A DNA stretch of 61,516 nucleotides from a virus (IMGVR_UViG_3300031949_000035:1-61516), one strand, 5' to 3'. Positions 30,000 through 52,654 are shown, numbered from the stretch's first letter. Numbers and translations: made by a program. The notes: generated from the letters alone by a model not told the origin.

Positions 30000-30203
30000 A
30001 TGGAACCAATTACAATAATTCAGTGTCCTCATTGTGAAGGGCAAGGATACAACATTCAATCTCATCCCGTTTATCGAGGGACAAGGGATATGGCAATTGA
30101 TGCAGGTGACATGGAATTTGAAGGTTGTCTTGCCCTGTTTGGTGAAGAATTGAGGAAGATATCGTGCGAGCATTGCGACGGCGTTGGCTCTATAAGGCCA
30201 TAA
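30000..30203 (+). CDS. DnaJ-type zinc-finger small protein
   Basis: CPHCEGQG and CEHCDGVG; AGGAG SD; stop lies in the first attC core. Confidence 0.7.
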   Translation: MEPITIIQCPHCEGQGYNIQSHPVYRGTRDMAIDAGDMEFEGCLALFGEELRKISCEHCDGVGSIRP

Positions 30204-30265
30204 CGTGGAAATAACCGGCTGACGCGGTTTCTTCGCGGCAGTCCGTGTTGATTGTAGGGTTAGGC
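30198..30265 (-). other. attC-like site 1
   Basis: CCATAAC...hairpin...GTTAGGC. Confidence 0.85.
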
Positions 30266-30297
30266 ACTCACCCTTGACGAGTGCGCTGGAGTAAAAC

Positions 30298-30450
30298 ATG
30301 AAAAAAATGATTTGTCATATCATAGCTTGGCTTGTTCAGTTCGCGGATAAGTATGCTTGTGAAACTTATGATAACAAAGCAGAACTTTCAAGCGGGCCGT
30401 GCGCAAGATGTGTTGGTCAAGAAGTTCGCGGGCCACAGAGCAGTGCCTAA
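30298..30450 (+). CDS. Cassette-borne 50-aa protein (MKKMICHII...)
   Basis: GGAG SD; cassette ends GTTAGGCACT / AGTGCCTAAC. Confidence 0.6.
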   Translation: MKKMICHIIAWLVQFADKYACETYDNKAELSSGPCARCVGQEVRGPQSSA

Positions 30451-30501
30451 CGTAGAAATCACCTGCCGCCGAAGGCGGTCAGGTGGATTGACGGGTTAGC
30501 C
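30445..30501 (-). other. attC-like site 2
   Basis: GCCTAAC..ATCACCTG-CCGCCGAAGGCGG-TCAGGTGGAT..GTTAGCC with extrahelical G. Confidence 0.9.
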
Positions 30502-31107
30502 ATAGCGCTGATGAGCCTGACGGGTATCAACAAGGTGCTTAAGAAAATCTTTGCCGTACTGGGTGATGTCAATTCGGTCTGCAACAAACGTAACAAGGTT
30601 GCTATTGAGTGGATACGAAAACCATTCCTCGAATTTCCTTCCCCCGTGAAGGTCTGGATATTCCTTCTGGGCCTGCTCGAAGGTGGCGTTGGCTTCTTGC
30701 CTTGTTATTCCGTTTTTTGTGCCGGAAATTTGAATTAGGAGCGCGACTTGACTACCAAAAATAGTGTGGGCAATGTTGTTGAACTCAAACTCAATTCGTG
30801 TGATTGCGAAAACACGAACAAGGGCGGCTATTTTTTCGCTATCTGTCGCCAAGCCAAGAGAGTGAATTTGTTTATCAACAAACTGCTCTCTCTCCAATGC
30901 GGTAGGAGACATCGGGTGTTTCATGATCTCTACGAACGGCAGAGGAGCGGGTTGCAACTCAGCCCCTTCTTGAGAGCGCTCGAAGGAAACGCTGTCTTTG
31001 GTGGCACTGGTAATGCCAGCGATCTTTTTAACTATCGCGGGCTTGAATTCTCGAATGGCGACCAAGCCAAGGAGAAGGGCTACTGCGGGCCAAATAAATA
31101 TGTCCAT
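30496..31107 (-). CDS. Cassette gene in canonical orientation; N-terminal TM plus winged-helix-like C-terminus
   Basis: 203 aa; IFGSQ..LL and IT.YG.DFL; ends GTTAGCCATA / TATGGCTAAC. Confidence 0.8.
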   Translation of the reverse strand: MDIFIWPAVALLLGLVAIREFKPAIVKKIAGITSATKDSVSFERSQEGAELQPAPLPFVEIMKHPMSPTALEREQFVDKQIHSLGLATDSEKIAALVRVFAITRIEFEFNNIAHTIFGSQVALLIQISGTKNGITRQEANATFEQAQKEYPDLHGGRKFEEWFSYPLNSNLVTFVADRIDITQYGKDFLKHLVDTRQAHQRYG

Positions 31108-31115
31108 ATATGTAT

Positions 31116-31178
31116 GGCTAACGTGGAGTTAACCGGCTCCGCGCTTTTGCGGAGTCCGGGTTGAACGGCGGGTTATGC
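31116..31178 (-). other. attC-like site 3
   Basis: GGCTAAC...GTTATGC hairpin. Confidence 0.9.
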
Positions 31179-31202
31179 CCCGTCTTAAATAAGGAGATAA
31201 AT

Positions 31203-31490
31203 ATGAGTAAGCCATACCCGGCACTATGCAAGGATTGCCGGCATGCAGTGCCGGAAGTGGGGAACGAGTGGAATTTGAGATGCCATCACCCAACTGTAAA
31301 TGCGCGTGATTCGTGGACACTGGCCTGTGGAAAAGGAAATGGCTCTGCTTGCCATGCGGAGCGCGAAAAGGGGTTTTTCTCCGCGTGTGGTATGAGTGGG
31401 AGGTTGTGGGTGGCGAAGGGGCATAACGCCGTGTTGAGCGGCGCGGGCGATTTTTGCCCGGTCGGTGTCGATCCGTTGGTTATAGAATAG
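31203..31490 (+). CDS. Cys-rich cassette protein reading through attC 4
   Basis: AGGAG SD; CKDCRH; ends GTTATGCCCC / GGGGCATAAC. Confidence 0.7.
   Translation: MSKPYPALCKDCRHAVPEVGNEWNLRCHHPTVNARDSWTLACGKGNGSACHAEREKGFFSACGMSGRLWVAKGHNAVLSGAGDFCPVGVDPLVIE
31421..31485 (-). other. attC-like site 4 (degenerate)
   Basis: GCATAAC...GTTATAG, imperfect stem. Confidence 0.65.
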
Positions 31491-31554
31491 GTTTCAATGA
31501 TCTATTATCAGGACCAACACATATTATTAGGGGTGCGCCCCGGGGAGGAATGTA

Positions 31555-31812
31555 ATGGGAATGTTTGACTATGTACATTTTGAAATGGATTGCCCAAAGT
31601 GCAACGCCAAAATAACAGACTTTCAATCGAAGGATAAAACTTGCAAAATGGAAACAATAGAGCCTGACTCGCTAATTAGCTTCTACAGTTCGTGTAAATG
31701 TGGAGCGTGGGTTGAGTTTCGCAGGCCAAGGCCAAAAATATCGCCGCTACGAGATACCGCTCTTACGCCGGATGAAGTGGCAGCTATGGGGTTCGTGATG
31801 GATGTGGTCTGA
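31555..31812 (+). CDS. Zinc-ribbon hypothetical protein
   Basis: MGMFD..CPKC....FQSKD phage motif. Confidence 0.75.
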   Translation: MGMFDYVHFEMDCPKCNAKITDFQSKDKTCKMETIEPDSLISFYSSCKCGAWVEFRRPRPKISPLRDTALTPDEVAAMGFVMDVV

Positions 31813-31837
31813 AATTCAAACAACGGAAGGGACTCGA

Positions 31838-32293
31838 ATGAAACTCACGGAACATTTTACCGTAGAAGAAATGACACATTCCGAGGCGGCAATCAGGCGG
31901 GGGCTTGACAACGCTTGCCCGGATGATTTGAAGGCAAATATGCAGCGGGTAGCTGATGCGCTTGAGGTAATCCGCGCCCACTACAACGCACCAATCCACG
32001 TTACAAGCTGCTATCGAGCGCCGGAGGTAAACAAGGCCGTGGGCGGTTCTCCGACAAGCGCCCACCGCTTTGCAAGCGCTGCGGACTTTGAAGTTTCGGG
32101 TGCTCAAAATATTGATGTATGCCGCAAAATCGCTGAACTACTGCCGGATTTCGACCAGATCATATATGAGTTTGGCCCTGCCGGCTGGGTGCATCTCGGA
32201 TTCACAGATAAAACTCCGAGAAAACAGTTGCTTTCCGCGGTCAAACGTAATGGCAAAACCGTACGTACTCCGCTCACGGACGCCAAATTCTAA
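31838..32293 (+). CDS. Peptidase M15A family endolysin candidate
   Basis: LTEHF..EEM..S, TS.YR...N.AVGG..TSAH....AAD, FDQ.IYE, WVH. Confidence 0.9.
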   Translation: MKLTEHFTVEEMTHSEAAIRRGLDNACPDDLKANMQRVADALEVIRAHYNAPIHVTSCYRAPEVNKAVGGSPTSAHRFASAADFEVSGAQNIDVCRKIAELLPDFDQIIYEFGPAGWVHLGFTDKTPRKQLLSAVKRNGKTVRTPLTDAKF

Positions 32294-32311
32294 TTTTAAG
32301 GAGGGATAAAA

Positions 32312-32569
32312 ATGATCGAACTTGGGGACAGAGTGAAGGACAAAATTTCAGGACTCAAAGGGATTGTGGTCGGCATTTCTAACTATTTATATGGATGTAA
32401 GAGGGTAAGCATCCAGCCGGAAGAGGCAAAAGATGGCAAGCCTGCGGAGTGGTACACTGTGGATGAACCTCAGCTTGAAATTGTAAAAAAGTCTGTGGTT
32501 TCTGGTAGAGATACACCTACACATGGACCAAGGGAGAATATACAACATAGGAAAGATGCAAGAAGATAA
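32312..32569 (+). CDS. Hypothetical SH3-like protein
   Basis: LGDRVKD.ISG..GIV.....LYGC phage motif. Confidence 0.75.
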   Translation: MIELGDRVKDKISGLKGIVVGISNYLYGCKRVSIQPEEAKDGKPAEWYTVDEPQLEIVKKSVVSGRDTPTHGPRENIQHRKDARR

Positions 32570-32619
32570 CGTTTAATTGAGGCGCGGCGTAGCCGTCGCG
32601 CTCGAATGATGGGTTGGGC
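32564..32619 (-). other. attC-like site 5
   Basis: AGATAAC...GTTGGGC hairpin. Confidence 0.85.
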
Positions 32620-32645
32620 GGAACGTAACTACGAAGAAAGGAAGC

Positions 32646-32954
32646 ATGATGGCAGGACTGATACCAGAGACAATTACCAGATTACAGGCTATTGCGTTTG
32701 TGCGAGACGCCGAACTTGAAGCGATAGGGCGCGACCGAATCATTCGCGCAAGCGCCGAACAGATGGCCGAACAAGCGTTGCACAAGATGCTGCGCGACTG
32801 CATCAAGACTGAAGGCGATTATATGGGCTACCAAGGACAGACGTTGCGCCTTGATGCGTACGTGCTAGCACCAGATGAACTGCATAAGATGCTCGCGGAA
32901 GCGAGAATGCAGGGAGAGCACGATGCTATGCGATGGGTGACGCCCAACGTGTAG
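32646..32954 (+). CDS. Cassette hypothetical protein
   Basis: Ends GTTGGGCG / CGCCCAAC. Confidence 0.7.
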   Translation: MMAGLIPETITRLQAIAFVRDAELEAIGRDRIIRASAEQMAEQALHKMLRDCIKTEGDYMGYQGQTLRLDAYVLAPDELHKMLAEARMQGEHDAMRWVTPNV

Positions 32955-32988
32955 GTAAGGCGCGCCGCGCTTCACCGTAAGGTTATAC
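32942..32988 (-). other. attC-like site 6 (short, internally deleted)
   Basis: GCCCAAC...GTTATAC, 47 bp. Confidence 0.65.
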
Positions 32989-33005
32989 GTCTTTTTGAGG
33001 ATAAT

Positions 33006-33290
33006 ATGAAAACATTGTGTAATTTTTGCAGCTCCCAAACATCTAATGGCAAAGGCTCCGTTGAATGCGGAAAGTCTGTGTTTGTCCGTGATGAATATGG
33101 AAATCACAAACAAGGTGCGGCGTGCATACATGACAGCGACCTGAAAGATTTTTTTATGACGAGAACCGGGCATGAAATTAGCATACACAACTTGTCATCC
33201 ACGATCGAACGGCAAAGCAATGACCTGATGAAGGCGCGGGATAAAATTACCGCACTGGAAAACAGGCTGGTAAAAGTTGGTGACGTATAA
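33006..33290 (+). CDS. Cassette hypothetical protein
   Basis: GAGG SD; ends GTTATACGTC / GACGTATAAC. Confidence 0.7.
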   Translation: MKTLCNFCSSQTSNGKGSVECGKSVFVRDEYGNHKQGAACIHDSDLKDFFMTRTGHEISIHNLSSTIERQSNDLMKARDKITALENRLVKVGDV

Positions 33291-33406
33291 CGCAAAATTA
33301 ACCAGCGGTGCGCTCACTGCACCCGAAACGGAGAAATAACATGGATAAATCACTGAACGTAAAAACCCCCGCTGGCGCACCGTCTGCGTTGAATGTAGGG
33401 TTGGGC
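33285..33406 (-). other. attC-like site 7 (long, holds RBS and ATG)
   Basis: GTATAAC..CGGTGCGC...GCGCACCG..GTTGGGC; GGAG plus ATG 33341 in the loop. Confidence 0.8.
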
Positions 33407-33547
33407 ATCGGAACTTTATTTGCTCTTGCTGGATGTTCAGGCGCTACCGGGAACATCACCGCGATCGATCCAACAGAGCGCGGATTATCGTATGCGGCCG
33501 CTGCCATTGTCACCTCCGCAGTAATTAAAGCGATATGCAACAAGTGA
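33341..33547 (+). CDS. Small putative lipoprotein starting inside attC 7
   Basis: LFALAGC lipobox-like motif. Confidence 0.55.
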   Translation: MDKSLNVKTPAGAPSALNVGLGIGTLFALAGCSGATGNITAIDPTERGLSYAAAAIVTSAVIKAICNK

Positions 33548-33650
33548 TGCCAACGCAAAGTTGAGCACCAGCCAACAGCGCGAAGGAAAACTATTAATAA
33601 TACTAAAAATGACCCCTCTGTTGGCTGTGCGCTCGAACGCCGGGTTATGC
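33548..33650 (-). other. attC-like site 8 (long)
   Basis: TGCCAAC..CAGCCAACAG...CTGTTGGCTG..GTTATGC. Confidence 0.85.
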
Positions 33651-34468
33651 CCCTCACGCTGTGGCATGGGGATTGCCTCGATTTGATGGCACAGATACCC
33701 GATGCGTCGGTAGATATGATCTTGTGCGACCTGCCCTACGGAACGACCGTCTGCAAATGGGATACGGTGATACCTTTTGAGCCGCTTTGGGCGCACTACA
33801 AACGCGTGATTAAGCCGAACGGGGCGATATTGCTCCTTGCGCAAACCCCCTTTGATAAGGTTTTGGGGGTAAGCAACCTGCCGATGTTGCGGTATGAGTG
33901 GATATGGGAAAAAACGGCGGCCACCGGCCACCTGAACGCCAAGAAGATGCCGATGAAGGCGCACGAGAACGTCTTGGTGTTCTACTCTCAGTTGCCGAAG
34001 TACAGACCGCAGAAAACAACAGGGCATAAACCCGTGAACAGTTACACAAAACACCAAGACGACGGCGAATGCTACGGAGCAACCATGATTGGTATCAGTG
34101 GCGGTGGAGCGACTGACCGCTACCCTCGGAGCGTATTGCAGTTTCAGAGCGACAAGCAAACCTGCAGCCTTCACCCAACTCAGAAGCCTCTGGCACTGAT
34201 TGAGTACATGATCCGCACCTACACTGACGGAGGCGAGACGGTTTTGGATAATTGTATGGGTAGCGGAACTACGGGCATCGCGTGCCTGAATACAGGGCGC
34301 AACTTCATCGGAATAGAAAAAGACCCAAAATACTTTGAGATTGCACGGAATAGGATTGAGGGGCATAACGTTCAAATTGAGGGGCAGGCCGCTCTGGCCT
34401 GTCCCTCTCGAATGCAGGGTTGGGCTCTGCGAAAAGTGAGAAATGAAACTTATAATGAACAGATTTAA
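33647..34468 (+). CDS. N4-C/N6-A DNA methyltransferase (beta class), cassette
   Basis: GDCL, DLPY, HPTQKP, DNCMGSGTT; ends GTTATGCCCCTCA / TGAGGGGCATAAC; reads through attC 9. Confidence 0.92.
   Translation: MPLTLWHGDCLDLMAQIPDASVDMILCDLPYGTTVCKWDTVIPFEPLWAHYKRVIKPNGAILLLAQTPFDKVLGVSNLPMLRYEWIWEKTAATGHLNAKKMPMKAHENVLVFYSQLPKYRPQKTTGHKPVNSYTKHQDDGECYGATMIGISGGGATDRYPRSVLQFQSDKQTCSLHPTQKPLALIEYMIRTYTDGGETVLDNCMGSGTTGIACLNTGRNFIGIEKDPKYFEIARNRIEGHNVQIEGQAALACPSRMQGWALRKVRNETYNEQI
34363..34425 (-). other. attC-like site 9
   Basis: GCATAAC...CAGGCC-GCTCT-GGCCTG...GTTGGGC. Confidence 0.9.
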
Positions 34469-34525
34469 CGATGAAGACGACGGATGGGATTACGATCCAT
34501 CCATACCTGATGATGGGTGGGGAAA

Positions 34526-35023
34526 ATGAAAACCCCCGCCAAACTTAAACAAGAATCTCGATGGGTGGAATCTGATGTAGTTTACACTCCAGACCATATT
34601 GCTGAGTGGATAGTAAACTATTTTAAACCACAAGGTTTATGCCTTGACCCTTGTAAAGGTGGTGGAGCATTTTATAATAAATTCCCCGGTGAAAAGGACT
34701 GGTGCGAAATCAGAGATGGTAGGAACTTTTTTGACCATACAACAAAGGCAATCTGGATTATCACAAACCCGCCATTTACAAATATAGAGCGATTCATGGA
34801 ACATTCATTTTCTCTGGCCGATAATGTGGTTTTCTTATTGCCTGCACATAAAACATTTTCTTCATGGGCGCGAATCCGGCTCATAGAAGCCTATGGCGGG
34901 ATTGTAACAATCTTATTGGTAAAAGGTCAGCAGTGCCAATTCCCTTTCAGATACCCTTATGGAGTATTTCACTTCCAGAAAGGATATAATGGCGGCACAC
35001 TGATACAGAACTGTGAAGCCTAA
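34526..35023 (+). CDS. Small amino-methyltransferase (NPPF), cassette
   Basis: YTP, LDPCKGGGAF, ITNPPF. Confidence 0.85.
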   Translation: MKTPAKLKQESRWVESDVVYTPDHIAEWIVNYFKPQGLCLDPCKGGGAFYNKFPGEKDWCEIRDGRNFFDHTTKAIWIITNPPFTNIERFMEHSFSLADNVVFLLPAHKTFSSWARIRLIEAYGGIVTILLVKGQQCQFPFRYPYGVFHFQKGYNGGTLIQNCEA

Positions 35024-35077
35024 CGGCAAGGTAAGAGGCTCGCCGTAGGCGAGTCCTGCTTGACCGTTAGGTTAGGC
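35018..35077 (-). other. attC-like site 10
   Basis: GCCTAAC...CTCGCC-GTA-GGCGAG...GTTAGGC. Confidence 0.9.
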
Positions 35078-35098
35078 TGGTTTTTATTGGAGACGAAG

Positions 35099-35281
35099 AT
35101 GTGAAAAGAAATACGCATAGAAATTTGCTGGGGATGGATAGATTGGATTTGCTCCAAAAAACGCTATGGTGTACGGATTCAATCTTTCTGGATCGGAGCA
35201 AGCCTGCCGATACCGAAGCGCGATTTTGATAAGCGCGAAAAGTCGATGAAGGAATGGCTAAAAACTATGCGTGATGCCTAA
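35099..35281 (+). pseudogene. Cassette ORF with TGA at codon 2
   Basis: GGAG SD, ATG-TGA, then 58 open codons (KEIRIEICWGW...MRDA) ending at the attC TAA. Confidence 0.6.
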
Positions 35282-35339
35282 CGTTTGAATTAAGGGGTAG
35301 GCCGCTTTTGGCCTGTCCCTCTTGAATGAGGGGTTCGAC
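35276..35339 (-). other. attC-like site 11
   Basis: GCCTAAC-6-ATTAAGG...CTTGAAT-5-GTTCGAC, bottom-strand layout on the + strand. Confidence 0.9.
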
Positions 35340-35361
35340 CCCGATACTACGGAGAACGGTT

Positions 35362-35733
35362 ATGGGATGGAGCATTGGCTACGACACAAACTGGAAGCGC
35401 GACATAGGCTATGGTGTACCGGCTTATTGTGACCATCCAGGCTGCAATGAAGTCATTGATCGCGGATTGAGTTATGTTTGTGGTGGTGAGCCTTTTGGTG
35501 GGGAACATGGCTGCGGTTTGTACTTTTGTGGGAAGCACACCACTTACCACGAAACGCGGGGAAGTGTTTGCGCGCCATGTGCAGATAGAAGGAAAAAGCC
35601 ATTTGAAGCCAAGCCAGACCATCCTGATTGGATAAAGTGGAAACTAACTGATGAAAGTTGGCGGCAATGGCGGGACGAGAACCCTGATGCAGTAGCGAAA
35701 TTAAAGGGGTCGAACGTAAAGTTAACCGGCTAG
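35362..35733 (+). CDS. Cys/His-rich cassette protein
   Basis: RDIGYGVPA.CDHP.C...IDRGL...CG; ends GTTCGACCCC / GGGGTCGAAC. Confidence 0.8.
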   Translation: MGWSIGYDTNWKRDIGYGVPAYCDHPGCNEVIDRGLSYVCGGEPFGGEHGCGLYFCGKHTTYHETRGSVCAPCADRRKKPFEAKPDHPDWIKWKLTDESWRQWRDENPDAVAKLKGSNVKLTG

Positions 35734-35775
35734 CCGGGCTTTATCGGCTAGTCCGAGTTGAACGCCGGGTTATGC
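35709..35775 (-). other. attC-like site 12
   Basis: GTCGAAC...CTAGCCG..CGGCTAG...GTTATGC. Confidence 0.9.
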
Positions 35776-35791
35776 CGGTTTTGAGGTAAAT

Positions 35792-36495
35792 ATGAAATCA
35801 ATTGCTGGAACACTTGCTGCACCATTTCCGTATTTTGGCGGGAAAGCGAACGCTTGCGAATTGGTGTTTGGGATGGTGAAAAGATTGTTGACCGCCGCAA
35901 GCTCCCGCATCTTGGTGACGCTGGGCGGGGCATCAACCGCCAGCTCCCGCATCTTAGCGCTGGGCGGGGCGAATACATCGCGGAGTGGTTCAACCTGCTA
36001 CATGCGCGCCTTCGTGATGTGCGGGTAGCCTGCGGCGATTGGCAGCGGGTGTGCAAAGATAGCGTGACCACGCGTCACGGCTTGACGGGTATCTTTCTTG
36101 ACCCGCCATACGATAAAGGCGCGATGGACTACGGCGCTGGTGGCATGGGGCAAAATATATCATCATCGGTGAGAGAGTGGTGCGCGGATAACGGCGATGA
36201 TCGGCAATTGAGGATCGTTATTTGCGGACACGCGGGGGAACATGACGACCTACTAAAGATAGGCTGGAAACTGCACAAGTGGACGGCTCGTAAAGGGTAC
36301 GCTCTGACCGACGAAGCAAAAGAAAACTCAGCCAGCGAAACGGTGTGGGCTTCGCCGCATTGCCTGCACAAGAAAAACGAACAGGGCGGATTGTTTGATA
36401 TTTCCGACACGCCACGCGATGCTTACGAGCAAACAGACTTCATAGCCAGTGCGCTAGGGGTGGGGCATAACCAGTTATTAGACAGTTGGGAATGA
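35792..36495 (+). pseudogene. Dam/D12-class adenine methyltransferase with internal deletion and frameshift
   Basis: PFPYFGGK in one frame, IFLDPPY in another; motif I (EPF.G) region absent. Confidence 0.8.
36465..36484 (-). other. attI-like simple site at the head of array 1
   Basis: Minus strand TGTCTAAT-AACTG-GTTATGC: L box, 5-bp spacer, core; no hairpin. Confidence 0.6.
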
Positions 36496-36505
36496 TTTAA
36501 AAGTC

Positions 36506-36534
36506 TTGACATTTACTCTTTCTTATGGTATAAA
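36506..36534 (+). promoter_or_regulatory. sigma70-like promoter pointing away from the attI-like site
   Basis: TTGACA-17-TATAAA. Confidence 0.65.
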
Positions 36535-36959
36535 AGAGGTATCCCCGTGTGAAACCCCCCTTCTTACACATATCGTTAACAAATGCTCACCCCTACAAGA
36601 ATCGTGCCATTAACGTTTTAATTCTATAAGTATTTTAATTGGCTATCTAAAACAAAGATTTATATAAAAAAGCAGGTTAATCACAGAACTACCCACCGCA
36701 CGTTCCCAAAACCGGAACGCGCAATATGTATATGCTTCTGCAAAAAAACTACCATAGCCTTCTTGCCTACCACTGTAGCCGCAATATTAAAAAGAAAATT
36801 ATTGCAGGCATTGTTATAAAATAAAGAGGTTAAAATAATATTCCAAATAGTATAAAATCTATGCTTAGTTGAAAATTGGGGAGAGGTTAAAATAAGCTCC
36901 CCCCTTTTTCTATCGCCTGCCCCTGTATAAACCCCCCCCCTGTTTCCGGGGTGTGGGGG

Positions 36960-37180
36960 TGGGGGGGCGACATGGCCTGGCTGGGTAAGAGGTGGGGGCT
37001 TTGCTATGCATGGCATGGCCTGACAAGGCAAGGCTGAGTAAGAGGTCTTTGATAGACATGGCCTGGGGGACTATGTGCATGGCCTGGGGGGTAAGAGGTG
37101 TGCTTTGTGAGCTGATAGGCTAGGCATGGCCAGGGAGGGGAGGAAAAAGTTGATAGGTAGGTATGGGTAGGGGGGAGAAA
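36960..37180. repeat. G-rich interspersed short repeats downstream of terS (candidate packaging/terminus region)
   Basis: CATGGCC x5, GTAAGAGGT x3, GATAG x3. Confidence 0.7.
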
Positions 37181-37210
37181 GTGCGTTGTGGGGCATCCTG
37201 GAAGTTTTCC

Positions 37211-37759: not shown

Positions 37760-37996
37760 GTATGGGGGGGCCTGAGATCGTGCGCTGTGGGCGATTGTAG
37801 CCCGGGTTTTTTTGGGATTTTGTAGTGTAACATTTTTGGTACTATTTTGCAAGCAGTTTTTTTGACAATTTTTGGTCTGAAGTGACATTTTTTTGGTTCA
37901 TTTTGCAACAATTTTTGGTATTTTTGGTTTTGGCTTTTGGGTGGTAGTGGGGGGAAAAGCCCTTTAAAATCAAGGAGTTACGATATTTTTAAGTTT

Positions 37997-38012
37997 TGGT
38001 ATGGGTTGTGCA
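37997..38012 (+). promoter_or_regulatory. sigma54-like -24/-12 promoter for early genes
   Basis: TGGTATGGGTTGTGCA has canonical GG-N10-GC spacing. Confidence 0.45.
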
Positions 38013-38029
38013 TACTATATATATAAGAG

Positions 38030-46787: not shown

Positions 46788-46850
46788 GTCTAACTCTCCG
46801 CTTGAGGGGCGCGACTGAAAGGAGCGTCCCGCTCGAAGCGGTTGTTATGT
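46788..46850 (-). other. attC-like site 13
   Basis: GTCTAAC...GTTATGT. Confidence 0.85.
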
Positions 46851-46999
46851 TTCAAACAAACTATGCGTTTTCTGTCTCTATGAGCCTCCCCAGGCGGGGG
46901 ATAATCAGTGTGCAGAGAAATCACCTGATTTACAAAACGAGGCGACATCACCAACGCGCCTATCTACACATGACGGCTGGCCGATCCAGCCTCCTAAGA

Positions 47000-47087
47000 A
47001 GATAACGCCGTGCTGAACCGCACGGGAACAGACAAATGCCAAAACCGACCGCGCTTATTCCGTGTCGGTTCGAGCAGATTGTTAACA
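47000..47087 (-). other. attC-like site 14
   Basis: AGATAAC..TGCTGAACCG...CGGTTCGAGCA..GTTAACA. Confidence 0.85.
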
Positions 47088-47101
47088 CTTTTTGTTATTT
47101 T

Positions 47102-47178
47102 GCGGAGGTAGTTTAATTGGTAGAACAGTTGACATTCCAGTTAACCAGTGGCGGTTCAAACCCGACCTCTCCGCTCCA
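47102..47178 (+). tRNA. tRNA-Gly(TCC)-like element, non-canonical, overlapping the Mom-like gene start
   Basis: Acceptor GCGGAGG/TCTCCGC-T-CCA, D arm, TTCAAAC T loop; anticodon loop of 6 or 8 nt and a T-stem mismatch. Confidence 0.6.
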
Positions 47179-47722
47179 ATATTTCATAGAGCCAGTGAGA
47201 TACGAAGCAGCGAAAGCCTTTGTTGAGCATTGGCACTATTCAAAGAGGATGCCAACAGGGAAAAACATCTGCTTTGGATTGAGAAGGGCTGGCGAAATGT
47301 ACGCGGTGATAGTTTACGGCATAGGCGTGAATCCGTATCAGGCGCAGTTTTTAGGCGTGAAAGAGTGCATGGAAATAAAAAGGATGTGCCGGAGAGAGCC
47401 GAAAGAAGACTATCCTCTTTCACGGCTGATTAACCTGACGACAAAGATGCTGAAGAAGCAGGAGAGTTTTCAGGCTGTTGTGGCTTTTGCTGACCCGGAG
47501 CAAGGGCACGAAGGGACAGTCTACAAGGCCGCAGGATACGAACACAAAGGGATGAGCAACGCAGAGTGGCATCTTGAAGACGAAGACGGCAACAAGAGGC
47601 ACAGGCGATTTGCTTTCAGAATGGCAAGACGGAACGGTATTTCTGTTTCTGAGGCAAGAGATCAGTTAAACGTAAAAAGAGTGCAGACCGCCCCGAAGCA
47701 CAGATGGGTGAGGTTTGTATGA
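47117..47722 (+). CDS. Mom-like adenine-modification (GNAT-fold) protein, cassette
   Basis: HWHYS, EIKRM, FADP.QGH.GTVYKA.G; ends GTTAACACT / AGTGTTAAC; start uncertain. Confidence 0.85.
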   Translation: MVEQLTFQLTSGGSNPTSPLQYFIEPVRYEAAKAFVEHWHYSKRMPTGKNICFGLRRAGEMYAVIVYGIGVNPYQAQFLGVKECMEIKRMCRREPKEDYPLSRLINLTTKMLKKQESFQAVVAFADPEQGHEGTVYKAAGYEHKGMSNAEWHLEDEDGNKRHRRFAFRMARRNGISVSEARDQLNVKRVQTAPKHRWVRFV

Positions 47723-47726
47723 AGAG

Positions 47727-47785
47727 TGTTAACGTTAAATTAAGGGGCGCGCTTTAGCGCGTCCCGCTTGAATGAAAGGTTAGAC
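47727..47785 (-). other. attC-like site 15
   Basis: TGTTAAC..ATTAAG...CTTGAAT-5-GTTAGAC. Confidence 0.9.
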
Positions 47786-48043
47786 ATGAGAATTAAACAA
47801 TGTCACCCAGCATGGCCGCAACATGCGTCTTTCAGTTGCCCGACTTGTGGAAGTTTATATCAAGACGGGGATGAATATGATGAACATTCATACGGGCCAG
47901 ATGACGGTGAAAGCATGGCTCAATGTTTGCGGTGTAACAACGGGTTTATCGTGCGGAGAATTGTTACCGTAACTTACCACACCGAGAAACCCGGCAATAA
48001 AATACCTGTTGTTGTCATACGCCGGGATCATAAAGATGCCTAA
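47786..48043 (+). CDS. Zinc-ribbon cassette protein
   Basis: CPTCG and CLRC..F.V.R.V...Y. Confidence 0.7.
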   Translation: MRIKQCHPAWPQHASFSCPTCGSLYQDGDEYDEHSYGPDDGESMAQCLRCNNGFIVRRIVTVTYHTEKPGNKIPVVVIRRDHKDA

Positions 48044-48096
48044 CGACAAGCTAAGCCGCCGCGCTTTTTGCGGTCGGCTTGAGCGATTTGTTAAGT
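48038..48096 (-). other. attC-like site 16
   Basis: GCCTAAC..CTAAGCCG...CGGCTTGAG..GTTAAGT. Confidence 0.9.
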
Positions 48097-48102
48097 ATTT
48101 TT

Positions 48103-48315
48103 TTATTTATCATCGGATTTTTGATTTTCTCCGAAATTTAAATTTAATGGTTGTCTTAATTCAATTTGAAAGGATGCATCAGACCATGAATTTTTACCAT
48201 AATCAATCGTTGAAATTGTGGCTTTATATGTTTCATTTGCGGCATCAGAAATAGCTTTTGCAATAATGGACTCCATTTGTTGAACAGAAATAGATTTTAA
48301 TTTATTTTCAAACAT
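48103..48315 (-). CDS. AT-rich cassette hypothetical protein, canonical orientation
   Basis: 70-aa ORF inside the GTTAAGT / ACTTAAC cassette. Confidence 0.6.
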   Translation of the reverse strand: MFENKLKSISVQQMESIIAKAISDAANETYKATISTIDYGKNSWSDASFQIELRQPLNLNFGENQKSDDK

Positions 48316-48343
48316 AATTAATTTCTTTTCAGGAGGTATAAAA

Positions 48344-48562
48344 ATGACGACCGCCGATGCAGTCGAATTTCACAAAATTATGAAGTATCTTAGTATTTAT
48401 TATCCTATCAATTCGATAAACAGTGATACGGTTTATGTTTATTTTGATGCCCTTTCCGAATATAAAGTTGAAGATATTTATAAAGCGGTAAAGTTATATA
48501 TTAAAAAAGAGACAAAATTCCCCAGTGTTTCTGAGTTGATTTCTTATTTATGTCGAACTTAA
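48344..48562 (+). CDS. G39P-like helicase loader/inhibitor N-domain, cassette
   Basis: AGGAGG SD; YF.AL..Y....I..AV...IK..T.FP.VSEL. Confidence 0.65.
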   Translation: MTTADAVEFHKIMKYLSIYYPINSINSDTVYVYFDALSEYKVEDIYKAVKLYIKKETKFPSVSELISYLCRT

Positions 48563-48619
48563 CGATAAGCTCACCAGTTGCCAGGTTTATTGGCAATCTG
48601 GTGGAGCGCCTTGTTAGGC
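48557..48619 (-). other. attC-like site 17
   Basis: ACTTAAC..CTCACCAG...CTGGTGGAG..GTTAGGC. Confidence 0.9.
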
Positions 48620-48636
48620 GCAGAAAGGATTGACAA

Positions 48637-49131
48637 ATGAACAAAACTATGAGGACTATAGATAAAGAAGGTGGAGCGGCTGTTGGCTCGACCGATTTGT
48701 TAGCCGAATTGACGGAGCGGCGAAGCAAGTTCGTATATGATGCCGCCCGACTCGCCGCACAAGCTGCCAACGCACCAATAATCCCCGTGCCGTGGGACGA
48801 GCGCGAAGAACCTTTCCAGGTACAATTCCGAAAAGTCATAGACCGGCAATGCGGAGAACAGCGCTCTCGCTCACCGGAAGAACTACACGGTAGCTGGATG
48901 CAGGCATACTTCGGGATGGGCTGGGTGTTCGGAACTGAATACAGCCGCGAGAACAAGACGCATCCAGACCTCGTACCATACGCAGACCTTGGCCAACTCG
49001 AACGAGATAAAGACGCTGTGTTCGTGTCTCTCTGCGAGATTGCGCGCCAATGGGTGTATTCAGCTAACTCTCCGCATGAGCGCGCCGCCGAAGGCGGTCC
49101 GCTCGATGCGGTGGTTGTGCGTCAAACGTAA
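48637..49131 (+). CDS. RyR-domain-like phage protein; both termini attC-encoded
   Basis: H.SWM......GW..G and KTHPDLVPY.DL...E..KD; half attC at about 48672-48705. Confidence 0.75.
   Translation: MNKTMRTIDKEGGAAVGSTDLLAELTERRSKFVYDAARLAAQAANAPIIPVPWDEREEPFQVQFRKVIDRQCGEQRSRSPEELHGSWMQAYFGMGWVFGTEYSRENKTHPDLVPYADLGQLERDKDAVFVSLCEIARQWVYSANSPHERAAEGGPLDAVVVRQT
49062..49120 (-). other. attC-like site 18
   Basis: AGCTAAC...CCGCCGAAGGCGG...GTTGTGC. Confidence 0.9.
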
Positions 49132-49144
49132 CTACGGAGTGAGG

Positions 49145-49900
49145 ATGAATGAGTTGGCACTTTTTGCAGGAGCAGGCGGAGGCATCTTGGGAGGGCACTT
49201 GCTTGGATGGCGCACCCGATGCGCTGTTGAGATTGATGCCTACTGCCGAAGCGTGCTGCTCGCCCGCCAACGCGACGGACTGCTGCCAAGATTCCCGATT
49301 TGGCACGGCGTGCGAACATTCGACGGAAAGCCTTGGCGCGGGCGAATTGATGTTGTCTCCGGGGGCTTCCCGTGCCAGGACATCAGCGCAGCCGGCAAGG
49401 GCGCAGGACTCAGCGGAGAGCGCAGCGGATTGTGGGGAGAAATGGCCCGCATCATTGGCGAAGTACGACCGCTGTACGCGTTCGTGGAGAACTCGCCAAT
49501 ACTCACTTCTCGGGGGCTTGGACGAGTTCTGGGAGACTTGGCCGAAATGGGGTTTGATGCGCGGTGGGGAGTGCTGGGCGCGCGACACGTTGGCGCATGC
49601 CACCGACGCGACCGGCTTTGGATTTGTGCCAACCGTGCTGACATCGGAAGCGACGGGGCCTGGCCTACATGGGAACGGGAGCCACAATTTCCGAACGTGG
49701 TTTCGAGAGAACAGCACAGAGCGCAGGTTGCCGCTGCACGGGGAACTTATGATGCTATGGCCGGTGGGCTGGGCAAGCGCTGGAGAGCAATTGGAAATGG
49801 ACAAGTTCCGGCAGTGGCAGCGGCAGCATGGCGGATTTTGACGCACAACGCCAAGGGTGAGCGGCGGCATTATCGCCCGCTCGACCCGTTGGTTAGGTAA
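49145..49900 (+). CDS. C5 cytosine DNA methyltransferase (alpha chain), cassette
   Basis: LFAGAGG, GGFPCQD, FVEN, H.R.R, AIGNGQVP; ends GTTGTGCGTCAAA / TTTGACGCACAAC. Confidence 0.92.
   Translation: MNELALFAGAGGGILGGHLLGWRTRCAVEIDAYCRSVLLARQRDGLLPRFPIWHGVRTFDGKPWRGRIDVVSGGFPCQDISAAGKGAGLSGERSGLWGEMARIIGEVRPLYAFVENSPILTSRGLGRVLGDLAEMGFDARWGVLGARHVGACHRRDRLWICANRADIGSDGAWPTWEREPQFPNVVSREQHRAQVAAARGTYDAMAGGLGKRWRAIGNGQVPAVAAAAWRILTHNAKGERRHYRPLDPLVR
49149..49841 (+). CDS. Overlapping +1-frame polypeptide carrying a motif IX-like segment (beta chain)
   Basis: 230 open codons; LPLHGELMMLWPVGW resembles motif IX, which the main frame lacks. Confidence 0.65.
   Translation: MSWHFLQEQAEASWEGTCLDGAPDALLRLMPTAEACCSPANATDCCQDSRFGTACEHSTESLGAGELMLSPGASRARTSAQPARAQDSAESAADCGEKWPASLAKYDRCTRSWRTRQYSLLGGLDEFWETWPKWGLMRGGECWARDTLAHATDATGFGFVPTVLTSEATGPGLHGNGSHNFRTWFRENSTERRLPLHGELMMLWPVGWASAGEQLEMDKFRQWQRQHGGF
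49843..49898 (-). other. attC-like site 19
   Basis: GCACAAC..GGGTGAGCGG...CCGCTCGACCC..GTTAGGT. Confidence 0.9.
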
Positions 49901-49917
49901 ATACTATGTTGTGGCGA

Positions 49918-50127
49918 TTAACCTTTTTTAGTTATTCCAGCGGAGGGATATTTATTTTGCAACATTGCAATAGACTCATCTCGAAATTTTTGAATGTCAT
50001 TGTCTGTAAGTGTTCCTGGCGGGGCGACACTCAAAAGTCTATCAATAACTTTTTCCAAAACGTTGATCCTAAACTCAACGTCAATAACAGAATTAGCAAT
50101 ATCAATACCGCCGACCTGTATTCCCAT
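49918..50127 (-). CDS. Cassette hypothetical protein, canonical orientation
   Basis: GAGGTG SD; 69 aa. Confidence 0.7.
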   Translation of the reverse strand: MGIQVGGIDIANSVIDVEFRINVLEKVIDRLLSVAPPGTLTDNDIQKFRDESIAMLQNKYPSAGITKKG

Positions 50128-50133
50128 AGTGAT

Positions 50134-50475
50134 TCACCTCGTATCAGTGGTAATAGTTGGAATCTTCAAATTGGCCCCGATATTCCCAGATTTTATATAT
50201 TTTTCGTAGATAGCGGCTGCGACCAAGGAGGCAATAACCCCTAAGATAAATGTACAAATCAGAGAGTAAACAAACCGAGAGGTTTTTGACCACCACGGAG
50301 GATAATAAGCCATTCTCCACGTTACATTATTACATGAAGGGCATTCGATAGGAGTGCCTTCAGAAATGTCAGTTACTCTCATTTCTTTAGAGCACTTAGG
50401 GCAAGGCATATCGTATTCTACAGCCTTTTTGACTACTAATTTTGGCCCATTAAAAATGGATGGTATAGTTGGCAC
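50134..50475 (-). CDS. Zinc-ribbon plus TM cassette protein, canonical orientation
   Basis: CPKC, CPSC, one TM helix; GGAG SD. Confidence 0.7.
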   Translation of the reverse strand: MPTIPSIFNGPKLVVKKAVEYDMPCPKCSKEMRVTDISEGTPIECPSCNNVTWRMAYYPPWWSKTSRFVYSLICTFILGVIASLVAAAIYEKYIKSGNIGANLKIPTITTDTR

Positions 50476-50513
50476 TAACGCAGCTCCATATTTACTATGA
50501 ATCTATTTTTGGA

Positions 50514-50576
50514 ATCTAACGACCCAAGTTGAGCGGAGGCACCGCAGGTGACTTCCGCTCGAACGACTGGTTAGCC
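50514..50576 (-). other. attC-like site 20
   Basis: ATCTAAC..GTTGAGCGGA...TCCGCTCGAAC..GTTAGCC. Confidence 0.9.
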
Positions 50577-50612
50577 GACGAACCGAAAACTTAAACCATA
50601 AGGAGAAGAAAG

Positions 50613-51215
50613 ATGGAGTTTCAGGGATTTCCGAAGATTGCCCGCCTCAGCCGGGAGTGCATTATCACCGAAAAGATTGATGGGACCAATACCCAGGTCT
50701 GCATCCAGGTGTTGCCTGATGATGCGGTTATGCCTACCGATACGCCCATTGTCGCAGTGCGCGGGAATCTACTGATCTATGCGGGGTCCCGAACCCGATG
50801 GATTACGCCCAAGGATGACAACTACGGTTTTGCGGGATGGGTAGAGCGGAACGCCGTTGAACTCGCAAAACTAGGCGAAGGGCATCACTTTGGGGAATGG
50901 TGGGGATGCGGAATCCAGAGGAGATACGATCTCAAAGAGAAGCGCTGGAGCCTGTTCAACGTGTCCCGCTGGAACGGGGAGGATCGCCCCGCTTGCTGCG
51001 ATGTGGTCCCGACAATTTACAAGGGTGATTTCACCAATGATGCCGTGACAAATGCGATTGAAGACCTCCGAACCAATGGTAGCAAAGCATCTCCAGGTTT
51101 TATGAATCCCGAGGGAATCGTTGTTTATCACACGGCTGGACGAATGTATTTCAAGAAGACCATCGAGAAGGATGAAGAACCAAAGGGTAAATGGATGGCT
51201 GAAAGAGTCGGCTAA
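50613..51215 (+). CDS. RNA ligase family nucleotidyltransferase, cassette
   Basis: FPKI, TEKIDGTN (motif I), DNYGFA, FGEW, PEGIV; ends GTTAGCCGAC / GTCGGCTAAC. Confidence 0.88.
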   Translation: MEFQGFPKIARLSRECIITEKIDGTNTQVCIQVLPDDAVMPTDTPIVAVRGNLLIYAGSRTRWITPKDDNYGFAGWVERNAVELAKLGEGHHFGEWWGCGIQRRYDLKEKRWSLFNVSRWNGEDRPACCDVVPTIYKGDFTNDAVTNAIEDLRTNGSKASPGFMNPEGIVVYHTAGRMYFKKTIEKDEEPKGKWMAERVG

Positions 51216-51261
51216 CGACCCAAGTTGAGCGGAGGCACCGCAGGTGACTTCCGCTCGAACG
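51210..51261 (-). other. attC-like site 21 (copy of site 20, right core lost)
   Basis: 51212-51261 identical to 50516-50565. Confidence 0.8.
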
Positions 51262-51297
51262 CCGTATTACGAAGACCGATTTTTGAAAGGGATGAAG

Positions 51298-51678
51298 ATG
51301 GAAACGAAAAACGCAGTGATTGAAAGCGCCCGCATCACCAGCGACGACCACGGCTGCTTGTGCGCCTGGCTGATGCTTGATTACGGCGGCAGCGGCCAAG
51401 GGTTCGGCGGCTACGCGCTGTACCTGCCGAAGAGCTTTACGCATCACAAGATGGAGAGCGTGGCGGGGCATTTCATTTGGCGCGTAATGGAGGTTGCAGG
51501 CGTTACCGATTGGGACAAGCTCAAGGGCAAAACCATCCGGGTGCGAGGCGACCGCGGGTGTATTGAAGCGATTGGGCACGTCGTCAAGGACGACTGGTTT
51601 TGCCCGCGTGAAGACTTCGCGGACAAGGCGGCTAACGTAGAGGTAAGGGGTCGCCCGCTTTTGGGCGATCCCTCTTGA
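51298..51678 (+). CDS. Cassette hypothetical protein
   Basis: NA.I.S......DHG, QGFGGY, W..L.GK..RV phage motifs. Confidence 0.75.
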
Positions 51679-51692
51679 CCGCCGGGTTAGGC
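51630..51692 (-). other. attC-like site 22
   Basis: GGCTAAC...TCGCCC..GGGCGA...GTTAGGC. Confidence 0.9.
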
Positions 51693-51712
51693 GGTTTTAA
51701 CTGGAGATAAAG

Positions 51713-52006
51713 ATGTCAAATTGTGAATATGTGCGTGAATATTATGAAGTGCCAGCAGAGATAGGCAGGCGTGTCGTAGTTAGCGGAAAGGCTGGAATTA
51801 TTGCCGCTGACCGTGGGCATTACATCGGCGTGAACTTTGACGTAGACAAGCCGGGCGTAATTTGCAACTGCCATCCGACAAGTAAGGTGGAGTATGGCGA
51901 GATTGGGAAGATTCGCAAAATGACGCGCAGCCAAGAGAATTATCGGCGATACCTTGATCTTGACTGTGGATTCCCATTCGCAGAATGGATGGGGTTTAAG
52001 GCATAA
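51713..52006 (+). CDS. Cassette hypothetical protein
   Basis: YVR.YY.VPA.IGRRV and HPT motifs; GGAG SD. Confidence 0.75.
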   Translation: MSNCEYVREYYEVPAEIGRRVVVSGKAGIIAADRGHYIGVNFDVDKPGVICNCHPTSKVEYGEIGKIRKMTRSQENYRRYLDLDCGFPFAEWMGFKA

Positions 52007-52063
52007 CGTGTAGCTCAAGGGCGGGCGGCTTTTCGCCAGTCCGCGTGGAACTATGGGTTAGGC
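52001..52063 (-). other. attC-like site 23 (degenerate stem)
   Basis: GCATAAC...GTTAGGC. Confidence 0.7.
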
Positions 52064-52082
52064 ATAACTTTAAGGAGAAAAC

Positions 52083-52313
52083 ATGAACGTACACGGAGTT
52101 GAAATAACCGACGAACAGCAAAATGCCTGCATTGTGGCGATGGAAAAGCGATTCAAAGCCAGCGATATTGAACTTGTGGCGATACAGGCAGGAGTACCTC
52201 GTTACCATAATAGGAATGATATTGCGCATAGAGTTGCTGACCGACTCATTCAGCGGCAGCGCAAGACTGGGGCAATTAAGAGGGACGGGAAGCACTGGTT
52301 GCCTAACGCATAG
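52083..52313 (+). CDS. Cassette winged-helix-like small protein
   Basis: R.ADRLIQR.RK.G.I; ends GTTAGGCA / TGCCTAAC. Confidence 0.7.
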   Translation: MNVHGVEITDEQQNACIVAMEKRFKASDIELVAIQAGVPRYHNRNDIAHRVADRLIQRQRKTGAIKRDGKHWLPNA

Positions 52314-52366
52314 CTAACCGGCTGGCGGCTTTATGGCCTGCGTCCGTGTTGAGCGGAGGGTTAGCC
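52301..52366 (-). other. attC-like site 24
   Basis: GCCTAAC...GTTAGCC. Confidence 0.8.
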
Positions 52367-52400
52367 GCCGTCTCACCAGAACCGACTTTTGGAGGACGAA

Positions 52401-52469
52401 ATGAATGACAGAGATTTTTTGATGTGGCTGCACGAGCGACTTGAAAAGGTTCATGGAGAAGACGTTTAA
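52401..52469 (+). pseudogene. Truncated cassette ORF (MNDRDFLMWLHERLEKVHGEDV)
   Basis: GGAGG SD; stops at a GTTTAAC core after 22 codons. Confidence 0.5.
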
Positions 52470-52654
52470 CGCTCTCTGACCGCACATGCGGGAGATTATA
52501 AATGTTCACGCTGATTAACGACATAGGTGTGGGGGCTGTATTGTCCAACGCATTGCTGTTATCTCCGATAGCTATAGTTGCCATTTACATCTTGATGTTT
52601 GTTATAAATTGGTGTTGTGAAAGAAGGGGCTACCGGCGCGGCAAAAAATGAACT

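Follow-up and report, generated by a model that had tools for sequence, protein, structure and literature searches.

Two attC arrays without an integrase and with reversed cargo genes in a closed soil phage genome

Integrons are known as bacterial devices for the stockpiling of genes, and phage-defence systems carried in integron cassettes have reportedly been described in recent preprints. The closest phage systems are those of Qi et al. 2023 (PMC9892861); the sections of that paper used here give 3 complete integrons, 1 In0 and 17 clusters of attC sites lacking integron integrases (CALINs, with at least two attC each) among 10,705 NCBI phage genomes. The same sections report methyltransferase cargo and the recombination of 5 of 6 phage attC with attI1 by IntI1, and they propose that bacterial IntI acts in trans (PMC9892861). 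Phage CALINs are therefore already known. Here we analyse the IMG/VR virus record IMGVR_UViG_3300031949_000035, the whole of which (61,516 bases) is called the window below, and describe in it two arrays of attC sites, array A (30198-36471) and array B (46788-52470). They lack an integrase, and their cargo genes are reversed compared to the cassettes of bacterial integrons.

The arrays were the subject of an original prediction, made from the sequence alone. It took CALINs to be described mainly from chromosomes and plasmids, a statement that needs qualifying because phage CALINs and phage integrons are already in print in the sections of Qi et al. 2023 (PMC9892861) cited above.

Two arrays of integron attC sites

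A repeat search of the window returned recurring left halves (GCCTAACG..) and right halves (..GGGTTAGGC). Eighteen sites were aligned to give a 63-position consensus, and from this alignment we built a covariance model, R1, whose structure combines an R-box helix and an unpaired spacer with a long stem, the 3' arm of which bears three single-base bulges. AAC, GTT and a bulged G are invariant in the 18 aligned sites, and the outer R-box positions mostly pair. The site ends carry the inverted core sites RYYYAAC and GTTRRRY, with the exception of B10 (site names as in Table 1), which has no GTT. The extrahelical G lies at column 55, on the 3' arm of the + strand and opposite AAC, as in an L box. 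The other two bulges are at columns 51 and 47, with 3 + 3 paired columns between the three; column 47 is a T in 13 of the 18 sites, giving an extrahelical T and a 6-bp stem that separates the first bulge from the last. The central spacer (columns 8-14 and 59-63) is unpaired, the terminal loops are variable, and site lengths range from 47 to 122 nt. According to the part of Nivina 2016 (PMC5027507) drawn on here, the extrahelical bases of attC sites stand opposite the AAC arm on the bottom strand, usually as an L-box G plus a T further inward, the first and last of them being 6 bp of stem apart.

Structure is conserved over sequence in these sites. Paired bases fill 83.7% of the cells of the 18-site alignment, compared to 69.8% in shuffles, both sides vary in 12 of the 15 stem pairs, and the covariation score was reached by 0 of 500 shuffles. 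When the partner was slid by 1-3 columns, pairing fell to 34-48%. Of 24 sites, 17 have the more stable fold on the + strand and 5 on the minus strand, with 2 ties, which matches the bottom-strand bias given in the same part of Nivina 2016 (PMC5027507).

With filters off, R1 matched the whole window 20 times at E<=1.3e-4, always on the + strand; A5 and B10 are the two strong matches that were not seeds of the model. Five weaker matches, also on the + strand, correspond to A3b, B2, the half-site B6 and portions of the two long sites A6 and A7, whose homologues in other contigs (85-91% identity) score 40.6 and 42.6 bits. Outside 30198-35775 and 46788-52366 this search returned nothing at E<1, and when read on the minus strand the sites scored only 8-11 bits. 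This makes 12 sites for array A and 12-13 for array B. A plain scan for AAC...GTT pairs with a folding filter had produced 113 and 204 candidates, on both strands; it was too noisy and was replaced by the covariance model. Rfam has no attC family, and its sole match in the window is a borderline tRNA at 47103-47174 (+, 29.6 bits, cut-off 29) that overlaps the start of the Mom-like gene; ARAGORN called no tRNA over the window. The adjacent sites B9 and B10 contain an exact duplication of 50 nt (50516-50565 and 51212-51261), and the B10 copy has lost its right-hand core.

We then ran R1 on known integrons. On 50 kb of plasmid R100, the sole match at E<0.5 was attC-aadA1 (47.5 bits, full model), which lies on the opposite strand to aadA1 and shares its strand with intI1. 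The integron integrase of G009, another phage record considered below, was used as query to fetch 80 bacterial intI loci (L108-L187), in which 181 sites were matched by R1 at E<=1e-3, with a top score of 82 bits. Each of the 181 lies on the intI strand, upstream of intI, and a plain nhmmer profile was in agreement (125 of 125 matches, 35 loci). In the Tetrasphaera phage TJE1, a published CALIN, three R1 sites were found, which lie at the orf1-orf3 3' ends and on the opposite strand to the genes. Sites of the window are 80-90% identical to sites of integrons in Methylobacter, Methylotenera, Gallionellaceae and Burkholderiales metagenome-assembled genomes (MAGs), and B3 in particular is 85-90% identical to attC of the Methylotenera and Gallionellaceae MAG integrons. 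By their structure and by cross-recognition with known attC sites, the hairpins of the window are true integron attC sites.

Six-frame searches of the record for tyrosine (PF00589), integron-integrase (TIGR02249), serine (PF00239) and Y1 (PF01797) recombinases returned 0 matches. The source genome is a tailed phage from soil and is circularly closed. Positions 1-142 recur at 61375-61516 with an identity of 141/142 (one mismatch) and, with this overlap removed, the minus-strand frame 2741..1 joined to 61374..54930 runs across the junction for 3061 codons to a single terminal stop. We accept closure, at a unique length of 61374 bases, because of the 142-nt end overlap and the intact frame over the junction. 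The structural genes (terminase, portal/adaptor-like protein, major head and tail proteins) are on the minus strand at 1-27.7 kb, and 7 of the 10 structural-region proteins tested have PHROG matches. Small + strand genes occupy 28-53 kb, and GC skew flips together with gene strand. Between the two arrays are an exonuclease, a Gp2.5-like single-stranded-DNA-binding protein and an HNH endonuclease, which are ordinary phage replication genes; the arrays are therefore embedded in the phage and not appended to it.

Arrays A and B are thus CALINs in a closed phage genome without an integrase: 12 and 12-13 attC sites are clustered, where at least two suffice, on a replicon that has no intI. A complete integron would have intI, attI and a cassette promoter beside the array, and here there is no intI. 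Together the arrays cover 11,957 of the 61,374 bases, or 19.5% of the genome. Each ends downstream, on its right-hand side, in a lone R box without a hairpin, and the sequences that follow the lone R boxes of array A, array B and G009 are not visibly alike.

The census agrees with the original prediction, which had placed 12 + 12 sites of 47-122 bp at 30198-35775 and 46788-52366. The AAC and GTT bounds and the extrahelical G that it described were found in 18 of 18 aligned sites, and its complete circular genome without a tyrosine or serine recombinase is upheld by the end overlap, the 3061-codon frame and the profile searches. Its assignment of the hairpins to attC architecture and of the arrays to the CALIN class is confirmed by the covariation and by the recognition of known attC by R1.

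Orientation of the cargo genes

Because the three controls (R100, the bacterial intI loci and TJE1) fix the polarity of R1, its + orientation denotes the bottom strand. The attC geometry lies on the + strand of the window, which is therefore the recombinogenic bottom strand. The + strand also codes for nearly all of the cargo, and the order within a cassette is hairpin, gene and then an end in the ..TAA/C of the next R box (the slash marks the crossover point). The cargo is thus reversed compared to bacterial integron cassettes, and this is the main new feature of the arrays. The original prediction had correctly given all sites a single orientation; it missed that the strand which folds as the bottom strand also codes for the genes, that is, that the cargo is inverted.

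Within the arrays, 14 + strand open reading frames (ORFs) have Pfam or PHROG support, as against 1 minus-strand gene (30496-31107). A canonical cassette has a top-strand ORF with the attC at its 3' end, and the count here is 14 bottom vs 1 top. The 14 include an M15 peptidase, an N6/N4 methyltransferase, two to three further methyltransferase-like proteins, Mom, an RNA ligase, a RyR-domain protein and six PHROG families of unknown function. The cargo is of phage type, and DNA modification is prominent in it, with three to four methyltransferases and Mom beside the RNA ligase and the M15 peptidase. The single minus-strand gene encodes 203 amino acids; it has no match in Pfam or PHROG and resembles 70 other proteins at E<=1e-3, mostly over the full length and at 33-87% identity, several of them labelled as bacterial MAGs. 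Stop codons and some start regions overlap the hairpins, which lie on the coding strand. Two ORFs on the minus strand (33485-34375 and 49064-49870) exceed in length the + genes that they overlap; they have no family match while the + frames do, and they were taken as antisense frames.

As a uniform test, we recorded the strand of the longest ORF in each cassette interval and scored a Shine-Dalgarno (SD)-like motif on each strand. In the window, the longest ORF was on the bottom strand in 10 of 16 cassettes, and the motif was present on the bottom strand only in 9 and on the opposite strand only in 1. Similar results were obtained for the other viral records (20 of 33; motif on the bottom only in 14, on the opposite only in 2). 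In bacterial arrays, on the other hand, 5 of 87 longest ORFs were on the bottom strand (82/87 canonical), with the motif on the bottom only in 7 and on the opposite only in 15. The phage-side and bacterial proportions, 30/49 and 5/87, differ with p 1.9e-12 by Fisher test. An earlier version of the test, with sites defined by the covariance model, placed 60 of 87 on the bottom strand and found an SD-like motif before 45 bottom-strand vs 6 opposite-strand ORFs. Since the bacterial arrays and TJE1 are canonical, the reversal is a property of the phage-array group and not of the R1 model.

Table 1. Sites, cargo genes and array ends in arrays A and B
Feature	Position	Strand	Remarks
attC A1	30198..30265	+	R1 51.2 bits, E 5.1e-11, seed
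attC A2	30445..30501	+	R1 48.8 bits, seed
203-aa gene, canonical integron orientation	30496..31107	-	stop inside A2 R box
attC A3	31116..31178	+	R1 78.1 bits, seed; 98% identical copies in L018, L025
attC A3b, weak	31421..31485	+	R1 16.4 bits, E 0.057, non-seed
M15 peptidase cargo	31802..32293	+	PF08291 76.4 bits; in three-ORF cassette A3b-A4
attC A4	32564..32619	+	R1 53.1 bits, seed
attC A5, shortest, 47 nt	32942..32988	+	R1 30.6 bits, E 1.2e-5, non-seed
attC A6, 122 nt, long terminal loop	33286..33407	+	R1 right half only (33352-33406), 10.5 bits; fold pairs both ends; homologue L018:2892-3014, 85-87% identity, R1 40.6 bits
attC A7, 103 nt	33548..33650	+	R1 partial (33558-33643), 10 bits; homologue L015:3303-3405, 91%, 42.6 bits
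N6/N4 DNA methyltransferase cargo	33647..34468	+	PF01555 93.8 bits
attC A8	34363..34425	+	R1 70.4 bits, seed
DNA methyltransferase-like cargo	34517..35023	+	phrog_799 98.3 bits
attC A9	35018..35077	+	R1 64.8 bits, seed
attC A10	35276..35339	+	R1 68.5 bits, seed
attC A11	35709..35775	+	R1 60.6 bits, seed
Final array A cargo gene, weak methyltransferase match	35854..36495	+	phrog_1996 24.2 bits, phrog_56 23.4 bits
Lone R box GCATAAC, array A end	36465..36471	+	no hairpin after; right side of contig joint 35020 to 36468
attC B1	46788..46850	+	R1 47.2 bits, seed
attC B2, weak, 87 nt	47000..47086	+	R1 13.5 bits (47003-47084), E 0.31
Mom-family DNA modification protein cargo	47117..47722	+	PF25680 117.1 bits
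attC B3	47728..47785	+	R1 56.3 bits, seed
attC B4	48038..48096	+	R1 50.9 bits, seed
attC B5	48557..48619	+	R1 51.9 bits, seed
Half-site B6, right arm only, doubtful	48660..48705	+	R1 11 bits, E 1.4
attC B7	49062..49120	+	R1 34.8 bits, seed
DNA methyltransferase-like cargo	49149..49841	+	phrog_1008 50.3 bits
attC B8	49843..49898	+	R1 41.5 bits, seed
attC B9	50514..50576	+	R1 48.3 bits, seed
RNA ligase cargo	50613..51215	+	PF09414 38.6 bits
attC B10, without right-hand GTT	51210..51270	+	R1 26.6 bits, E 1.3e-4, non-seed; repeat family D13
attC B11	51630..51692	+	R1 76.8 bits, seed
attC B12	52001..52063	+	R1 63.2 bits, seed
attC B13	52301..52366	+	R1 63.1 bits, seed
Lone R box GTTTAAC, array B end	52464..52470	+	sequence reading; no hairpin after, no R1 match

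Some features outside the arrays were also recorded. Consensus sigma-70 promoters (TTGACA, TATAAT) are present at 42819-42848 (18-nt gap) and at about 28341-28370 (17-nt gap), and both stand 5' of + strand gene blocks that end in arrays. A 61-nt intergenic repeat with a GC-rich hairpin occurs in three copies that are 66-95% alike (38003-38063, 38811-38871 and 39321-39381); these copies sit among small + strand genes outside the arrays and are not attC-like by R1. A PAPS-reductase-like gene at 28432-29184 is not in a cassette. A search with this gene returned 51 viral loci that share only it with the window, and attC was found only in L048, a viral contig in which the homologue is flanked by two attC sites (L048:7861-10795).

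Cassette exchange and the source of the integrase

A search with a short site motif returned 43 IMG/VR stretches, and about a dozen records contain R1 arrays of the same type. Among these are genuine phages on different backbones: G003 and G010 (both with direct terminal repeats and a rating of 100% complete) give portal or terminase matches, L002 has a portal match, and L015 has RecE-like and DnaB-like matches. G003 (L102), a 36.8-kb phage with direct terminal repeats and no tyrosine recombinase, carries two attC arrays of opposite polarity, at 2909-5029 (-, 3 sites) and 13319-16560 (+, 10 sites). Megablast of positions 1-25000 of the window against GenBank phages gave no match, and a search of IMG/VR with the large terminase gave one distant relative, L100 (37% identity), with no attC within 10 kb. 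Close backbone relatives for a comparison of cassette order were not found by these searches.

At the level of single cassettes, similarity to other contigs was found. The cassette at 52022-52332 is 89% identical to L018:3292-3602, where its neighbours are homologues of 33287-33411 and 36399-36471, two segments well separated in the window. In L018 and L038, a full attC comes after the gene with which array A ends (..GGGGCATAAC); in the window, unrelated sequence comes after it, and homology with these two contigs stops exactly after the AAC at 36465-36471. A11 together with 20 nt downstream is 96% identical in L038 and L017. A comparison of 111 sites gave 36 pairs whose hairpins are alike to at least 85%. 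In 7 of these pairs the 40 nt downstream are more similar than the background's 99th percentile, as against 0 pairs for the 40 nt upstream; the downstream flank is the more alike in 28 pairs, the upstream flank in 4, with 4 ties. Linkage of a hairpin to its downstream gene is what a crossover in the AA/C of the + strand predicts.

As judged from these sequences, cassettes are exchanged as units with other phages. The original prediction had spoken of reshuffling of accessory genes, and its cassette-exchange part holds: cassettes are common to other phages as units, with breaks at AAC. It had also called for a comparison of breakpoints, which likewise places the end of homology with L018 and L038 right after AAC. 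At the DNA level, none of the window's cassettes recurs whole in the 80 bacterial integron loci, and at the protein level a methyltransferase is the only cargo common to both.

Read-level data came from Logan contigs of one soil-metagenome run (X1), which is the probable source sample and thus not independent. Bins without cover were given no weight. One contig joins 35020 to 36468 through a shared TAAC, as if exactly three cassettes had been removed; with a depth of 5 and a shorter side of 26 letters, this joint is only a hint. The joints 35253 to 39488 (side 23), 35862 to 36342 and 49384 to 49541 were considered as excisions; they lie off the attC cores and were counted as variants or noise. 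The variants 35862-36342 and 49384-49541 are internal deletions of 479 nt and 156 nt in two methyltransferase-like genes, each in one low-depth contig. At the loose contig ends at 33654, 48566, 48618 and 51684, other sequence stands beside similar hairpins, and a recombined end is not told apart there.

Where might an integrase come from? Ten other array-bearing viral records were searched: eight lack PF00589, one has a sub-threshold match without an NCBIfam match, and one, G009, encodes a full integron integrase (TIGR02249, 464.8 bits, cut-off 265). G009 (L098:6247-10377) belongs to a siphovirus-like IMG/VR record of 26,680 bases and has, in order on one strand, a large terminase, five attC, a methyltransferase cassette homologous to that of the window, intI and a portal. 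By its attC-intI geometry G009 is a regular integron, and its cargo is reversed and read towards intI. Its backbone (TerL phrog_15, portal phrog_21) is unrelated to the window, while one of its attC is 95-98% identical to A3. The nearest bacterial relatives of its integrase (58-66% identity) are in Beta- and Gammaproteobacteria and in Geobacteraceae MAGs. Since G009 has a complete integron and a 95-98% identical attC, the integrase could equally come from another phage.

Our preferred reading, to which we give a probability of about 0.75, is that the window holds two CALINs of genuine attC sites with reversed cargo, on which an IntI acts in trans. In this model, an IntI encoded by a proteobacterial host or by a co-resident phage like G009 would fold the + strand hairpins and cut them at 5'-AA/C-3', and it would excise, insert and exchange cassettes between co-infecting or resident elements. 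The cargo would be transcribed by read-through from phage promoters and not from an integron cassette promoter (Pc). The bottom strand would lie on the lagging-strand template, an orientation known to raise excision: in the part of Richard et al. 2024 (PMC13108822) used here, inversion of the Vibrio cholerae superintegron, which puts the bottom strand on the lagging-strand template, raised excision from below 7e-5 to 3e-2. If genes are to run along replication and transcription and the bottom strand is to be on the lagging-strand template, reversed cargo would therefore be required.

Several points speak against this reading. IMG/VR classes the record as linear, and CheckV puts its completeness at 64%. 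Of the 20 strong R1 matches, 18 are seeds, which match by construction, and two sites are degenerate (B10 without its right-hand GTT, B6 a half-site). The longest-ORF test is a heuristic that called 6 of the 16 window intervals opposite, including the methyltransferase interval that Pfam puts on the + strand. The short 'viral' contigs L018 and L026 consist of cassettes only and may not be phage, and the pairs of the flank test share sites and are not independent. The joint from 35020 to 36468, at a depth of 5 and with a shorter side of 26 letters, is the sole read-level hint and may come from other organisms. The lagging-strand argument is built on the positive GC skew at 28-53 kb, which is also shaped by transcription. 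Finally, we infer both the recombination itself and the action of a host IntI here.

It could be speculated further that the arrays are the soil phages' own version of the integron: a pool of reversed DNA-modification or counter-defence cassettes that circulates among unrelated backbones, with new cassettes added at the downstream lone R box, IntI supplied by hosts or by phages such as G009, and fast recombination during infection, since the reversal would let the genes run along phage transcription and replication with the bottom strand still on the lagging-strand template. Such a pool would mirror, on the counter-defence side, the defence 'biobanks' that bacteria have in chromosomal integrons. 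We put this fuller version forward tentatively, at slightly less than even odds.

Another possibility, which we consider unlikely, is that the arrays are fossils, taken from an integron-bearing element by illegitimate recombination or in one burst of IntI activity, now immobile and with their hairpins kept as signals at the RNA or DNA level, for instance to terminate transcription weakly, to stabilise mRNA or to mark processing sites. The closed genome without an integrase and the degenerate B10 and B6 would fit this explanation. So would the position of the hairpins on the coding strand, which puts them in every transcript, their overlap with stop codons and some start regions, and the view, stated in the sections of Qi et al. 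2023 (PMC9892861) used here, that attC contain weak terminators. However, the features kept are those of recombination: AAC, GTT and the bulged G in 18 of 18 sites and the 3+3 bp bulge spacing would be needless for an RNA hairpin, and the same cassettes are found in different neighbourhoods of other phages with breaks at AAC. A terminator scan likewise found 15 vs 15.7 expected at 41-54 kb and a modest excess, 24 vs 14.7, at 29-41 kb.

A much less probable explanation is that the hairpins are not substrates of IntI and belong to some other hairpin-using system that resembles attC, such as a Y1/HUH transposase, an Xer-like enzyme or a REP-type element. This would account for a window without IntI. 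However, R1 retrieved 181 sites beside bona fide integrases as well as the class 1 attC-aadA1, all on the expected strand, the window attC are 80-90% identical to sites of bacterial arrays, and the record itself has no match to PF01797, PF00589 or PF00239.

An assembly artefact, a chimera of a phage contig and bacterial integron fragments, is hardly credible. In its favour, the assembly is metagenomic, and in the region of the arrays the source-run Logan contigs are broken up and several bins have no cover. However, two separate arrays each have phage genes of the same strand on both flanks, one Logan contig (44204-47391) continues from the backbone into array B and a second (35022-36497) reaches from A9 as far as the array A end, the cargo falls in PHROG families, the contig closes on itself with an intact 3061-aa frame, and arrays of the same kind are present on at least four other phage backbones.

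Comparison with described integrons

The reading preferred here, two CALINs served by an IntI in trans, places the window on the other side of the contest from bacterial defence cassettes: one-fifth of a phage genome, with methyltransferases, Mom and an RNA ligase as the main content, consists of integron-type cassettes whose genes run along phage transcription. If the cassettes move as inferred, they would form a modular pool of counter-defence genes common to phages by way of a bacterial recombination system, and the rule that cargo is on the top strand would be a habit of bacterial arrays and not a constraint of the system. The attC model could then serve as a handle for phage accessory genes, linking uncultured phages to integron-bearing hosts. 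The arrays are also natural test sites for the effect of strand choice and replication direction on cassette dynamics. Literature searches for phage attC arrays with reversed cargo gave Qi et al. 2023 as the only directly relevant paper, and in them we did not find the cargo reversal, arrays of this size (20-25 sites, 19.5% of the genome), one attC type across unrelated phages, or a complete integron between terminase and portal, although the supplements of Qi et al. 2023 may bear on site counts and orientations.

Like the window, the phage CALINs in the sections of Qi et al. 2023 (PMC9892861) cited here are attC clusters without an integrase in phage genomes and have methyltransferases in their cargo. 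In TJE1, the one published example tested here, the bottom strand is opposite the genes, which is canonical, whereas in the window it is the coding strand. Those sections deal with NCBI phage genomes and a minimum of two sites per CALIN; the window is a metagenomic viral record with two arrays and 20-25 sites.

The chromosomal integrons of Beta- and Gammaproteobacteria from soil and freshwater (Methylobacter, Methylotenera, Gallionella, Nitrosomonadales, Glaciimonas and Burkholderiales MAGs) have the same attC type, with R1 scores to 82 bits, as high as in the window. Unlike the window, their arrays are upstream of intI and their cargo is opposite the bottom strand in 82 of 87 cassettes. The attC-aadA1 of In2/Tn21 on plasmid R100 has the same boxes, spacer and bulges as the window sites, but with two bulged bases where the window has three, and, unlike in the window, the gene of its cassette is on the top strand and is expressed from Pc beside intI1. 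The superintegron in the part of Richard et al. 2024 (PMC13108822) used here is in an engineered bacterial chromosome and has canonical cargo, whereas the orientation of the phage arrays relative to replication is inferred from GC skew alone.

The phage integron G009 is similar to the window in its near-identical attC, in its methyltransferase cassette on the bottom-strand side and in its reversed cargo, and it differs from the window in having its own integrase and an unrelated backbone.

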